Positions 43,684 through 47,619 are shown, numbered from the stretch's first letter. The stretch: 64,000 nucleotides of DNA from Nitrospirales bacterium (GCA_965207835.1 CBDBNQ010000002.1:1713224-1777223), one strand, 5' to 3'. Numbers and translations: made by a program. The notes: generated from the letters alone by a model not told the origin.

Positions 43684-43980
43684 CTACCCCAGCGCCGCAG
43701 CCGGTTGGACGCCGTCGATTAGCCGATGTTTCTCCCCGGCCAGCTTGCGAAAGTCACACTCGACTTGGATGCCGTGCCAGAACTGGTCTGACTGGCCGAA
43801 GAAGGCGCCGAATCGAATCGACATGGCCGGCGTAATCGACCGGCGGCCATGCACGATTTCATTGATCGCGCGCGGGGCCACACCGATGGCACGTGCCATG
43901 GCGTTCTGCGAAATCCCCATCGGCTTCAGGTACTCCTCAAGCAAAATCTCGCCGGGTGTGATAGGCATGTCCATATTCAT
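43684..43980 (-). CDS. higA: HigA-family antitoxin (XRE HTH)
   Basis: 98 aa. [44 protein letters not shown]. Confidence 0.8.
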
Positions 43981-44006
43981 ATCCTATAACGTCATAAGGT
44001 CATTTT

Positions 44007-44285
44007 TCAATGATAATCCACGATCGCCACCTGTTCCGGTCAGGCATCGGTCCATCTGAAGACGATACGCCATTGGTCGTTGATGCGAATGGAATGAAAG
44101 CCCGAATGCCGCCCGCTCAGAGCTTCCAGCCGGTTACCGGGCGGGACGGCAAGGTCACTGAGAGCACCGGCTTGATTCAATTGAATCAATTTTCGTAGCG
44201 CAACTCGCGATAGCGCGGCAAACCGCCGATTGCGTTCCAACGTGAATAGTTCTTCCGTATCCCTGTCCGCAAATGATCGGATCAT
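44007..44285 (-). pseudogene. higB: HigB-type (RelE superfamily) toxin with an in-frame premature TGA
   Basis: The 81-aa ORF ends ...[14 protein letters not shown] at TGA (44040-44042). The same frame continues PEQVAIVDYH to a second stop at 44007-44009, matching the usual HigB C-terminus. Confidence 0.7.
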
Positions 44286-44439: not shown

Positions 44440-44539
44440 TCTCTTCGTTGCGGTGCGAACAGAGAACGCTAGGCGAAATCTCAAAGGAGAGTCAAATTTT
44501 GGGACTTATATACAATACTAGACAGGGCCAACAAATTTC

Positions 44540-44568
44540 TTGACACTAACTCCTATTTTTGGTACATT
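44540..44568 (+). promoter_or_regulatory. Candidate sigma70-type promoter for the transposase
   Basis: TTGACA (44540-44545), 17-nt spacer, TACATT (44563-44568). AAAGGAG lies upstream of the ATG at 44606. Confidence 0.4.
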
Positions 44569-44605
44569 ACTAGACACCAAACACAAGCCAAAAGGAGTGT
44601 CAGGC

Positions 44606-45559
44606 ATGCCGAAGAAAGCCCCTGGAAAGTACTACCGACATGGAATCAGCTTGGTGGAATTGATTGACCGTTTCCCCGACGAAGCCTCAGCGCGGACCTG
44701 GTTTGAGTCGATTCGATGGGCCAAAGGCCGGTCGTGTCCACATTGTGCATCCGCTGACACCAAGCCGGTTCCGAACGACAATCCCATGCCGTACCATTGT
44801 GGAGCCTGTCGCAAGTATTTCAGCGTCAAGACGGGCACGGTGATGCAATCCAGTAACCTGTCCTTGCGGAAGTGGGTCGTTGGGTTTTATCTGATGTCTA
44901 CGAATCTCAAGGGCGTTTCCAGCATGAAACTCCACCGGGATTTGAAGGTTACACAAAAGACGGCCTGGATGATGGCCCAGAAGATTCGACAAGCTTGGAA
45001 GAGCGACCAAACGGCCTTGCTTGGGCCGGTCGAAGTCGATGAAACGTATATCGGCGGCAAAGACAAAAACAAGCATGCCAGCAAAAAGACGCAACGCGGG
45101 AATGCCTATGGAGTGAAGCAAGCCGTGGTCGGCATGAAGTCCCGGACCACGAATCAGATTGCGGCCCAACCGATTGATCCAGTCAGCGCCACCACGTTAC
45201 AACGATTTGTCAAAACGAATGCGCCGGACAGAACCCAAGTCTATAGCGATACAAAGCGCGGATACTGGGGCTTACGGAAGGCCGGGTATACCGTGGATCA
45301 AGTGAACCATTCGGCTGGGGAATATGTCCGTGATATGGCCCACACCAATGGCATTGAATCCTTTTGGGCGATGTTGAAGCGAGGCTATCACGGCACCTTT
45401 CACAAGATGAGTGCCAAGCATCTACATCGCTATGTAGATGAGTTTTCCGGTCGGCATAACGTGCGTGAGTTGGATACGATTCAGCAAATGACCGTCATGG
45501 TTCACGGGGTGGTAGGGAAGCAGTTGCCGTATCGGGAGTTGATTGCCAATGCTAGCTAA
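44606..45559 (+). CDS. IS1595-family transposase (zinc ribbon + DDE)
   Basis: CPHC...CGAC zinc-ribbon motif, then KWVVGFYLM...VEVDETYIGGK..., typical of ISXO2-like/IS1595 transposases. Confidence 0.85.
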   Translation: MPKKAPGKYYRHGISLVELIDRFPDEASARTWFESIRWAKGRSCPHCASADTKPVPNDNPMPYHCGACRKYFSVKTGTVMQSSNLSLRKWVVGFYLMSTNLKGVSSMKLHRDLKVTQKTAWMMAQKIRQAWKSDQTALLGPVEVDETYIGGKDKNKHASKKTQRGNAYGVKQAVVGMKSRTTNQIAAQPIDPVSATTLQRFVKTNAPDRTQVYSDTKRGYWGLRKAGYTVDQVNHSAGEYVRDMAHTNGIESFWAMLKRGYHGTFHKMSAKHLHRYVDEFSGRHNVRELDTIQQMTVMVHGVVGKQLPYRELIANAS

Positions 45560-46535
45560 GGTCGGGCAACGGAAGAAGGGCCGGTCGAGGGGGGTTCTGT
45601 TCACACATCCAGCCCAACCTGTCTTCACGTATCGGCAAGCGGTTTTCTATCAGGCAGACTGCTTTGATTGGTTGGAGAAGTGCCCTGATCAGAGCCTGCA
45701 CGCAATTGTAACGGACCCACCTTACGGCCTTCTGGAATATTCCGAAACCGAGCAGCAAAAACTTCGGAATGGCCGAGGCGGAGTCTGGCGGCTCCCTCCG
45801 TCTTTTGATGGGAATGAACGGTCCCCGGTCCCGCGTTTTACCGTCTTGACTGACGAGGACTTGGCGAGAATGCATACGTTCTTTGTCCGGTTCGGCAAGA
45901 CCTTGGTTCGGGTGCTCGTTCCGGGTGCGCACGTCTTCCTTGCGTCGAATCCACTTCTCTCCCACATTGTTGCCTCAGCTCTATCAGGATCAGGGCTGGA
46001 AAGCCGAGGGATGATTATTCGATGTGTCATGACGATGAGAGGTGGGGACCGTCCCAAGAACGCCCATGAAGAATTTCCAGACATCAGTGTGCTGCCCCGC
46101 TCCATGACCGAGCCGTGGTTGTTATTCAGAAAGCCTCTTGAGGGCCGGGTTCAAGATACTCTTCGCAAGTGGGGGACTGGTGGGTTGCGTCGCATATCAG
46201 GCAACCAGCCTTTTGGGGATCTGATACGTTCCCATCCGACTCGCTCGAACGAGAAACGATTGGCCCCACACCCTTCTTTGAAACCTCAAGCCTTTCTCCG
46301 GCAGGTCGTCCGTGCGGCTCTTCCGTTGCAGATGGGGATTATCTGTGACCCGTTTGCGGGGTCCGGCTCAACGTTGGCCGCAGCCAATCATATGGGTTAT
46401 GAAAGTATTGGGATTGAAAGCTCGTCGTATTATACGGGGATGGCACAAAGAGCGGTGCCGGTTCTTGAAAAGATCAGGTGTCTAAGTACACCCAGTTCTG
46501 ACGCCACTTTTGAATGCCTTGCTTGTCGAGGGTAG
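45549..46535 (+). CDS. Beta-class DNA methyltransferase (N6-adenine or N4-cytosine; DPPY type)
   Basis: Motif IV TDPPYG precedes motif I DPFAGSGST (the PF01555-type order). The start overlaps the transposase stop. Confidence 0.85.
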   Translation: MLAKVGQRKKGRSRGVLFTHPAQPVFTYRQAVFYQADCFDWLEKCPDQSLHAIVTDPPYGLLEYSETEQQKLRNGRGGVWRLPPSFDGNERSPVPRFTVLTDEDLARMHTFFVRFGKTLVRVLVPGAHVFLASNPLLSHIVASALSGSGLESRGMIIRCVMTMRGGDRPKNAHEEFPDISVLPRSMTEPWLLFRKPLEGRVQDTLRKWGTGGLRRISGNQPFGDLIRSHPTRSNEKRLAPHPSLKPQAFLRQVVRAALPLQMGIICDPFAGSGSTLAAANHMGYESIGIESSSYYTGMAQRAVPVLEKIRCLSTPSSDATFECLACRG

Positions 46536-47085
46536 ACGTTCTGGTACCCAATGCCCCTCGTGGATTGTTGCGAAAATCGGAGATTTCGACATGACCCAAA
46601 TAGATTTCTGTGAACGTCAGCGGTGCCCGATCAACCAGCGGTTCAGTTTTGTCGTCGATACGATAGACAAACACACAAAACCATTGCTTCCTGGCTCCGT
46701 GGGTATCCACGGCCCCGCCTCTCTTTTGAGTGCATTTGATCTCAACACCTTGTTCTGGTGCGCCGGATTTTACGGCATTGTTGGGGTGGATACCATTTAC
46801 AATGAGATCGGGGTGGCCGTTATGGTAGGTGTTTTCGACAAGCGTTGTCGAATGGCTAGCTAATCCAGAAGTCACAAGGTCAGATAGAACGCCGGACATG
46901 ATTGCAGACCGCACAATGTCATCTAAACGTCGTAGGCCCTTGGCTAAAAGGGCCGTGTTCACATCATGGAATAAGTCGTACACGTCCTGCATGGCCAATG
47001 CGAAGTCTTTAATCCGAAGATTAAAAGGCAGGTCGGCTTCTTGGTTGAATTTTGTGTCGTTCGGAGTTTGACGAATGATAGCCAT
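46474..47085 (-). CDS. Putative type II restriction endonuclease (PD-(D/E)XK signature)
   Basis: 203 aa. GHPDLIV ... GVEIKCTQK fits PD...(D/E)XK. Convergent with the methyltransferase, with a 62-nt overlap. Confidence 0.55.
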   Translation of the reverse strand: MAIIRQTPNDTKFNQEADLPFNLRIKDFALAMQDVYDLFHDVNTALLAKGLRRLDDIVRSAIMSGVLSDLVTSGLASHSTTLVENTYHNGHPDLIVNGIHPNNAVKSGAPEQGVEIKCTQKRGGAVDTHGARKQWFCVFVYRIDDKTEPLVDRAPLTFTEIYLGHVEISDFRNNPRGALGTRTSTLDKQGIQKWRQNWVYLDT

Positions 47086-47130
47086 GTGGAGAGGATATGG
47101 CCCTGATAACGCTCAAATCAAGGTAAGATT

Positions 47131-47292
47131 ATGAAACCCTCAAAATTCATAACCCCCAAACCAAAGCGTCCCCGTGGTCGTCCGGTGATACGAATCATTG
47201 AGCCGATTGACGCCACGCCCGAAGAGATGGCGCAAGCTATGTTTCGAGCCGCAGACCGCGAACGGGATGAGCGGGGCAAGAAAACAGGGTAA
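47131..47292 (+). CDS. Small basic ORF with AT-hook-like PKRPRGRP motif
   Basis: 53 aa, below the ORF-track length cutoff and read directly from the sequence. Lies inside the IS unit. Weak RBS. Confidence 0.3.
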   Translation: MKPSKFITPKPKRPRGRPVIRIIEPIDATPEEMAQAMFRAADRERDERGKKTG

Positions 47293-47409
47293 GCCCGGAT
47301 GTCTAGTATTGTATATAATTCCCCAAATTTTCGCTTGACAGTTCATTCCGTTGCTGCCACCTTATTTCCCCTTGTGCGTAGTATTCACAATTCAAAAAAG
47401 GAGGGAGTC

Positions 47410-47619
47410 ATGATGAGGCTCGCTGCTTATTTGCTGTTGGTATTGCTATGTTCAGTTGTATTGGCGGTCCCGGTGTTCGCTCAGTCTGGGTCTGGGAGTG
47501 CTGTATATGGCATGGTTCAGGAAGATCCTGCACCTGCTCCTGAACCCTGTACGCCTGCTCCCGATAAACCCTGTCCTGAACCGGAACCGGAACCGGAACC
47601 GGAACCGGAAAAGTCATAA
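47410..47619 (+). CDS. Small secreted Pro/Glu-repeat protein
   Basis: AAGGAGGGAG RBS, then MMRLAAYLLLVLLCSVVLAVPVFAQ signal-like sequence, then a PEPEPEPEPEPE tail. Followed by a strong terminator. Confidence 0.55.
   Translation: MMRLAAYLLLVLLCSVVLAVPVFAQSGSGSAVYGMVQEDPAPAPEPCTPAPDKPCPEPEPEPEPEPEKS
47581..47610. repeat. (CCGGAA)5 hexanucleotide tandem repeat within the CDS
   Basis: Five perfect units, preceded by CCTGAA. Confidence 0.9.

Follow-up and report, generated by a model that had tools for sequence, protein, structure and literature searches.

An IS1595-family insertion sequence with a putative type II restriction–modification pair as cargo in a Nitrospirales genome

A 64,000-nucleotide stretch of a Nitrospirales bacterium genome (GCA_965207835.1, CBDBNQ010000002.1:1713224-1777223), referred to here as the window and numbered from its first nucleotide, contains between positions 44501 and 47323 a single element of 2823 bp. 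We regard this element, with a probability of roughly 0.85, as an intact insertion sequence (IS) of the IS1595 family that carries a type II restriction–modification (R-M) pair. It belongs with the transporter IS (tIS), in that two genes unrelated to transposition, encoding a DNA methyltransferase (M) and a putative restriction endonuclease (R), lie inside one pair of IS ends. In order along the window, its parts are the following:

44493-44500, unstranded: left copy of the target-site duplication, CAAATTTT, by direct reading; identical to 47324-47331
44501-44524, plus strand: left terminal inverted repeat (IRL), GGGACTTATATACAATACTAGACA, by direct reading, repeat finder and inverted-repeat search
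44540-44576, plus strand: putative promoter of the transposase gene, TTGACA-17 nt-TACATT (hexamers at 44540-44568) with TG upstream of the -10 box, scoring 10/12 in a promoter scan
44606-45559, plus strand: tnp, IS1595-family transposase of 317 amino acids, zinc ribbon at the N-terminus followed by a DDE domain (Pfam, NCBIfam)
45549-46535, plus strand: M, beta-class N6/N4 DNA methyltransferase of 328 amino acids (Pfam, PADLOC, motifs)
46474-47085, minus strand: R, putative type II restriction endonuclease of 203 amino acids with a predicted PD-(D/E)xK fold (context, motif, predicted fold)
47131-47292, plus strand: orf53, conserved accessory gene of 53 amino acids, KRPRGRP...IEPIDATPEE...FRxAD (tblastn, codon differences)
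47300-47323, minus strand: right terminal inverted repeat (IRR), reverse complement GGGAATTATATACAATACTAGACA, by direct reading, repeat finder and inverted-repeat search
47324-47331, unstranded: right copy of the target-site duplication, CAAATTTT, by direct reading

The element, its ends and its two cargo genes

An earlier note on this DNA had delimited a 2823-bp unit by 24-bp terminal inverted repeats (TIRs) and a perfect 8-bp direct repeat, and had placed four open reading frames (ORFs) within it: tnp, M, a convergent R and a 53 amino acid ORF. All of this, gene overlaps included, was reproduced from the sequence. The two TIRs are identical at 23 of 24 positions and, when up to three mismatches were allowed, were the sole such sites in the 64-kb window, with none found in 100 shuffles. 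They also form the longest inverted repeat of the region, which the repeat finder stretches to 31 nt because AAATTT is palindromic; the element boundaries are unaffected by this extension and agree with those seen in relatives. The duplication of CAAATTTT is perfect and lies directly outside both ends, and the probability of finding an identical 8-mer at two fixed positions by chance is approximately 1.5e-5.

Assignment of the transposase to the IS1595 family, as proposed in the note, is borne out by matches to the zinc ribbon (Pfam PF12760, Zn_ribbon_IS1595; 5.7e-08, 33 bits against a cutoff of 25.4, residues 24-70), to the DDE domain (Pfam PF12762, DDE_Tnp_IS1595; 2e-35, covering 2-153/153) and to the full length of the NCBIfam model NF033547 (transpos_IS1595; 1.5e-52, 178.6 bits against a cutoff of 75, positions 1-215/215). 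Relatives at 53–82% identity align across residues 1-314 of the protein, and the motif AAGGAG is found 8 nt 5' of the tnp ATG.

The ATG of M overlaps the stop codon of tnp by 11 nt. Pfam (PF01555, N6_N4_Mtase; 1.6e-16), the PADLOC MTase_II model PDLC03215 (2.5e-109) and the order of the motifs, with motif IV (DPPY, residue 58) preceding motif I (DPFAGSGST, residue 269), agree in placing the product among the beta-class methyltransferases, as the DPPY...FAGSGST signature had suggested. Its nearest solved relatives are the beta-class enzymes M.RsrI, CcrM and M.MboIIA, and the DPPY rule of thumb points to N6-adenine as the base that is probably methylated.

R is convergent with M and overlaps its 3' end by 62 nt. 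It has 6,649 homologues of about 200 amino acids, each source name shown being ‘hypothetical protein’. In an alignment of 52 sequences extending down to 29% identity, the active-site motif P92-D93...E115-I-K117 is well conserved, with P92 invariant and D93, E115 and K117 conserved at 90% or more. An alignment of 28 close homologues gave an AlphaFold model with a predicted local distance difference test (pLDDT) score of 46; the addition of 28 representatives reaching down to 29% identity made the prediction usable, with a pLDDT of 93.8 and a predicted template modelling (pTM) score of 0.90. When this model was compared with the Protein Data Bank (PDB) using Foldseek, the top 32 matches were all type II restriction endonucleases, including NaeI (probability 0.98, E 3e-3), BglI, EcoRV, SfiI and NlaIV. 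On the strength of the model, R appears distantly related to type II restriction enzymes, a resemblance that is uninformative on specificity.

In 80 of 80 metagenomic loci examined, an R homologue is adjoined by an M orthologue (50–71% identity), the two genes being convergent in 73 cases and in tandem in 7; no IS1595 transposase or orf53 was seen beside the pair in any of these 80 loci. The pair is also present in two loci from metagenome-assembled genomes (MAGs). It is because of this linkage to M, taken together with the conserved PD...ExK motif and the predicted fold, that we call R a type II restriction endonuclease, and the same three lines support the proposal in the earlier note that the PD...EIK ORF is the cognate nuclease of M. 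No non-nuclease homology was found for the 46474-47085 ORF. An R homologue (59% identity) also lies tail-to-tail with a DNA methyltransferase gene on NZ_CP011607.1 (L164), a 4938-bp mobilisable plasmid of ColE1 type, and around ten similar Klebsiella/Raoultella plasmids of clinical Enterobacteriaceae, those of Klebsiella likewise 4.9 kb in size, carry in the same tail-to-tail layout an R homologue labelled ‘hypothetical protein’.

Relatives, cargo slots and the backbone gene orf53

Relatives of the transposase were collected by a scan of one genome per species (480 stretches), from which the best 80 loci, at 53–82% identity, were kept. Among these, the closest transposases belong by record title to Nitrospira or Nitrospirales MAGs and, to judge from record titles only, many other relatives derive from marine or sponge-associated sources. 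The end motif GGGAMTTATATAC... is seen at both ends of most of the 80 loci, and 54 elements with the same end motif, ranging from 1.3 to 6.6 kb and including the window element, could be delimited. Perfect 8-bp duplications flank 47 of the 54, in keeping with the size that the earlier note had given for the IS1595 family, and the remaining seven are without a matching duplication; the TIRs of the window element are thus shared by dozens of relatives with 8-bp duplications of their own. The duplicated 8-mers are 74.5% A+T against 42.5% for the flanks, and CAAATTTT fits this target preference. Relatives are spread over distinct sites, and single genomes may hold several of them; together with the shared ends and duplications, this distribution marks a lineage that is clearly mobile. 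Among plasmid-borne IS1595 transposases, even the nearest do not exceed 46% identity, and the Prokaryotic Genome Annotation Pipeline (PGAP) labels them only as ‘IS1595 family transposase’. Ends of the form GGnnATTAT and a length of 2.8 kb presumably fit the ISfinder subgroup ‘ISNwi1 with passenger genes’, an unconfirmed assignment that we offer as a lead only.

Two cargo slots are apparent in the lineage, one between IRL and the tnp promoter and the other between tnp and orf53; the window element fills the latter only. A single delimited element, the 1296-bp L025, is free of cargo and comprises tnp and orf53. L025 (L025:5882-7177) and a cargo-bearing element of 5250 bp (L018:5861-11110), both on OZ252213.1, have the same flanking 8-mer, AATGCAAT, and similar outer flanks, which could mean that the target was itself a repeat or that the elements strongly prefer such a target. 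In L006, L007, L008, L010 and L013 the upstream slot holds a protein of 181–196 amino acids with hydrophobic N-terminal stretches and no Pfam match (cluster C2).

Cargo was typed by ORF clustering, Pfam scans of representatives and motif checks. Methyltransferase or R-M cargo is present in 29 of the 54 delimited elements, and the kinds of cargo seen in the lineage are listed below:

16 relatives and the window element: beta-class N6_N4 methyltransferases
at least 10 of these 16 relatives: beta-class methyltransferase fused or adjacent to an HNH nuclease
L013:5303-8725: MT-A70 methylase convergent with a MunI-family endonuclease (PF11407, 4.7e-81), within a perfect TTCAAAAT duplication
L051:5934-10753, ~4.8 kb: N6_N4 methylase, MvaI/BcnI-family endonuclease and a 677 amino acid fusion of C5-cytosine methylase and BsuBI/PstI
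L041: SacI-family endonuclease and D12 methylase
L018, L020-L023: type IIG-like N6_Mtase proteins and S subunits
L014: EcoRI-type methylase and GmrSD/HNH protein
other cargo in the lineage: trypsin-like peptidase, family-25 glycosyltransferase, DUF3800 protein and lipoprotein-like proteins

At least seven R-M-related kinds can be distinguished across the 54 elements: the PD-ExK pair of the window element, MunI-like, MvaI/BcnI-like, the BsuBI/PstI fusion, SacI-like, type IIG with S, and methyltransferase–HNH fusions. The cargo turns over faster than the backbone, because the elements with the closest transposases (L003 and L004, 81–82% identity) carry quite different cargo. With regard to individual elements, the HNH nuclease domains (cluster C1; L008, L010, L016, L057, L058, L059, L077, L078, L080 and L081) have the motif D-H-x2-P...N...C-x2-C-N and are either C-terminal in the methyltransferase or adjacent to it, with some split or truncated; L013 constitutes a second complete type II R-M system of the lineage, in an element whose transposase match is split; and the boundaries of L051 are uncertain, its flanking 8-mers being unmatched and its TIRs differing at six positions.

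The second component of the backbone is orf53. The earlier note had listed this ORF alongside the cargo; its presence was upheld, but it proves to be a conserved accessory gene of the IS lineage and not a fourth cargo-like ORF. A tblastn search places it in 24 related loci, with or without cargo and invariably close to the right end on the inner side, its stop codon lying about 27–36 nt inside the right end in relatives. Where no cargo lies downstream of tnp (L003, L004, L011, L012, L025 and L029), orf53 begins about 30–115 bp 3' of tnp; in the other, cargo-bearing elements it is 0.6–4 kb further along. The encoded proteins have the motif KRPRGRP-x3/4-(V/I)IEPIDA(T/P)PE-x-(I/L)A-x-A-x-F-R-x-AD in common. 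Across 13 elements, differences number 1655 at third codon positions as against 721 and 665 at the first two, and synonymous codon differences number 896 in frame as against 131 and 112 in the other frames; because of this excess at third positions and of in-frame synonymous changes, orf53 is a translated gene under purifying selection. As its RGRP core resembles an AT-hook, and both ends and targets are AT-rich, the product might by pure inference bind one or the other. A role as an R-M controller (C) protein was also considered and rejected, orf53 being present without R-M cargo and in the cargo-free L025 and giving no helix-turn-helix (HTH) match.

The M/R pair of the window element was found in none of the best 80 transposase loci in genome contigs. 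The 90% cluster of M has one other member, encoded on L083, a contig of 3070 bp that comes from another sample, where tnp, M and R follow one another in the order seen in the window element with the same overlaps of 11 and 62 nt. Identities between L083 and the window element are as follows:

M and R, nucleotide: 88%
5' tnp (44539-45088), nucleotide: 83%
M protein: 91.2%
R protein: 95.4%
Tnp protein: 71.8%

The low figure for the transposase is due largely to a 200-nt patch of tnp (45137-45336) that is 38–48% identical. Because L083 shares the layout of the window element, the tnp-M-R unit has persisted through appreciable divergence, which argues against a chance juxtaposition. At the place taken by IRL in the window element, L083 has an additional gene (positions 1-606), unrelated to the C2 protein of other relatives.

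Taken further, these features raise the possibility, which we put forward tentatively and to which we give somewhat less than even odds, that a distinct IS1595 lineage acts as a dedicated modular shuttle for R-M systems and methyltransferases, with a fixed backbone of tnp and the AT-hook-like orf53, two slots, cargo that is often coupled to tnp in translation, and a swapping of that cargo that is fast compared with backbone divergence. To judge by record titles alone, such a lineage would be particularly frequent in MAGs of marine and sponge-associated origin. If so, the R-M cargo would both defend the host and serve the IS itself as an addiction module.

Proposed working and alternative readings

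How might such an element operate? The zinc-ribbon/DDE transposase would bind the 24-bp ends and move the whole unit, favouring AT-rich 8-mers as targets. M would be co-transcribed with tnp and translationally coupled to it, R would be read convergently from the 45-bp spacer between R and orf53, and the 62 nt by which the two genes overlap tail-to-tail may make R expression later or weaker than that of M. Together M and R would act as a type II R-M system restricting incoming DNA and might make it costly for a cell to lose the element; that the R-M cargo stabilises the IS through post-segregational killing is a speculation, albeit a plausible one in the light of type II systems in general.

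The region upstream of tnp suggests a further layer of control. The TTGACA-17-TACATT sequence is the best promoter-like site in the element, and the earlier note had remarked on a recurrence of the inner TIR motif close to it. This recurrence is real: TACATTACTAGACA at 44563-44576 matches the inner TIR at 13 of 14 positions and begins at the -10 hexamer, and the arrangement of promoter and internal repeat is kept in relatives L003-L013. Among 47 non-redundant elements, 20 (43%) have their cognate inner-TIR 8-mer, matched at 7/8 positions or better, in the 75 nt upstream of tnp, compared with 10.7% for non-cognate 8-mers, and the cases include the different end types ACTGGACA, ATTAGCAA and CTTACCCA. 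A test of covariation between TIR and promoter using 14-mers was weak (own mean 8.9, cross mean 8.1), and the 8-mer contrast is taken as supportive only. The internal copy is a candidate operator, as its position on the -10 box would imply; on the simplest reading, a protein that binds the ends would also bind the internal copy and repress the tnp promoter.

A number of observations weigh against the element being an intact tIS with an R-M pair. With respect to the locus, a 22-mer across the junction of the predicted empty site, which would read ...GGAGAGTCAAATTTTCGCTTGACAG... with a single CAAATTTT, matched nothing in metagenome contigs, and neither higB, higA nor the radical-SAM neighbour, the host proteins on either side, gave an exact match elsewhere; because no empty site was found, insertion at this locus is deduced from the duplication and the family pattern alone. 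No second copy with exactly the same TIRs was retrieved either, the L083 contig stopping short of both element ends. In favour of the element, no related genome was found with M and R at this locus but without TIRs or duplication, although the locus itself was retrieved from no other genome. With respect to the genes, R gave no match in Pfam, NCBIfam, PDB sequences (phmmer) or a PDB profile search, and its match to PADLOC REase_II is marginal (E 0.007 over 36 residues). Its predicted fold is like that of the EcoRV/NaeI/BglI/SfiI/NlaIV branch, but the structural matches are weak, with a Foldseek E of 3e-3 at best, TM-scores of 0.3–0.4, sequence identities of 10–16% and no sequence-level homology. 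There is no obvious Shine-Dalgarno sequence upstream of R and, were the tnp promoter to be repressed in the manner outlined above, a sufficient supply of M would be hard to explain without an internal promoter.

Of the alternatives, the one that survives best is that a true tIS with R-M cargo has by now become a fossil, immobile or silent, in which the transposase or the restriction enzyme is inactive despite the ORFs. The presence of only one copy in the 64-kb window could be read in this way, as could the mosaic nature of tnp, where the 45137-45336 patch stands out from the remainder of the unit aligned with L083 (70–96% identical). The alignment across the patch is nearly gap-free, suggesting either that recombination has patched this stretch or that the transposase is hypervariable there. 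The state of the element speaks for something more recent, however. Each of the four ORFs has the full length of its family, R has every invariant residue of its family (bearing in mind that the invariant columns were defined on R itself), the TIRs match at 23 of 24 positions and the duplication is undecayed. Furthermore, G+C content at third codon positions (GC3) is 0.53–0.64 in the element genes against 0.78 in der and 0.82 in a radical-SAM gene among the host neighbours; judged by this gap, the element is compositionally foreign to its host, and a codon usage that has not ameliorated towards that of the host suggests a recent arrival. We consider a fossil unlikely.

Less probable again is that the 203 amino acid ORF encodes some other PD-(D/E)xK protein, for example a nuclease that is methyl-directed, regulatory or active in repair, in which case the cargo would be a solitary methyltransferase and an unrelated gene. 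The failure of R to match known families, the modest Foldseek scores (TM around 0.35) and the uniform annotation of its homologues as hypothetical proteins would all accommodate such a protein. This is difficult to reconcile with the association with M in every one of the 80 metagenomic loci, mostly tail-to-tail, and on small plasmids as well, with retention of PD...ExK down to 29% identity, and with structural matches that, over the top 32, are solely type II enzymes of the EcoRV/NaeI/BglI branch. Finally, the idea that there is no single mobile unit, and that an R-M module lies instead between two IS remnants or beside a one-ended IS with flanking 8-mers that match by coincidence or recombination, could draw on the lack of an empty site or identical second copy and on the seven relatives without matching duplications, which indicate that inter-copy rearrangements occur, but can be set aside as very improbable given the low likelihood of a chance 8-mer match, the perfect duplications in 47 of 54 elements, these being 1.3–5.3 kb long, the position of orf53 next to the right end whether or not a relative carries cargo (so that the right end is part of the same backbone) and the identical organisation of the 11-nt tnp-M overlap in the diverged L083.

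Known systems, significance and genomic setting

IS1595 elements with passenger genes were reportedly treated by Siguier, Gagnevin and Chandler in Res Microbiol in 2009. According to the TnCentral preprint, tIS with passenger genes are restricted to the IS1595 and IS66 families (10.1101/2021.05.26.445724), and both ISsaga and ISCompare credit Siguier et al. 2009 for the tIS category. The window element resembles IS1595 tIS in possessing a zinc ribbon and DDE_Tnp_IS1595 domain, short TIRs, an 8-bp duplication and passengers inside its ends, in the absence of a further IS copy.

Furuta et al. 2010 (PMC2853133) cite Siguier et al. 2009 among reports of IS-flanked R-M systems and solitary M genes, and describe in Neisseria gonorrhoeae NCCP11945 a unit that is bounded by inverted repeats matching at 26/26 positions and by an 8-bp duplication, and that holds genes for a type IIG RM protein and an S subunit besides an ORF bearing a transposase motif (COG3677) (Furuta, Abe and Kobayashi 2010, NAR 38:2428). 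In common with the window element, the unit is compact, combines R-M genes with a transposase-like ORF and is delimited by inverted repeats and an 8-bp duplication; COG3677 may correspond to the IS1595 type. Its cargo, a type IIG RM gene together with a homologue of type I S subunits, resembles that of L018 and L020-L023. In NCCP11945 the transposase-like gene is likely an inactivated derivative and the IIG gene is truncated (PMC2853133), whereas the window element has a full-length transposase and separate type II M and R genes. A likeness of a different sort is offered by pCAV1321-4938 (Citrobacter freundii, NZ_CP011607.1), where a member of the same R family (59%) again lies tail-to-tail with a methyltransferase in a minimal mobile replicon; unlike in the window element, the vehicle is a ColE1-type plasmid and not an IS, and R is labelled as a hypothetical protein.

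The novelty implied by the earlier note must accordingly be scaled down, the tIS category being established and a comparable R-M unit having been reported in 2010 (PMC2853133): the window element extends a known category and overturns nothing. In the searchable literature, which did not extend to Siguier et al. 2009, no description was found of this R-M family, of orf53 or of the scale of R-M cargo in the lineage, and searches on ISNwi1, on IS1595 with defence cargo and on ISXO2 with restriction yielded nothing relevant.

Movement of R-M systems between genomes is understood only in part, and the documented vehicles are mostly plasmids, prophages, integrative islands and insertions with long target duplications. 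An element of less than 3 kb with a single transposase and complete M and R genes is close to the smallest possible autonomous vehicle, and in the present case its ends are intact, its duplication fresh and its codon usage un-ameliorated. That more than half of the delimited elements bear methyltransferase or R-M cargo indicates that it is not a one-off. Some 6,600 proteins currently described as hypothetical gain an assignment as putative type II restriction endonucleases, and orf53 and the end motif embedded in the promoter become candidates for roles in transposition control.

The insertion point lies in a Nitrospirales-like chromosome, between a higBA toxin–antitoxin pair and a gene for a small secreted protein. 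Directly to the left, and downstream of der/engA, are higA (HTH_3, 98 amino acids) and higB (HigB-like toxin, 81 amino acids) at 43684-44285 on the minus strand; the element lies in the spacer between higB and the next gene, 208 bp upstream of the start codon of higB (44285). To the right, the first gene (47410-47619) encodes a 69 amino acid protein without a Pfam match, whose N-terminus looks like a signal peptide and whose C-terminus has a (PE)n repeat; tandem CCGGAA units lie at window positions 47575-47604. A promoter-like TTGACA...TAGTAT sequence for this gene starts 5 bp past the right copy of the duplication, and insertion so close by may affect the gene's upstream region.

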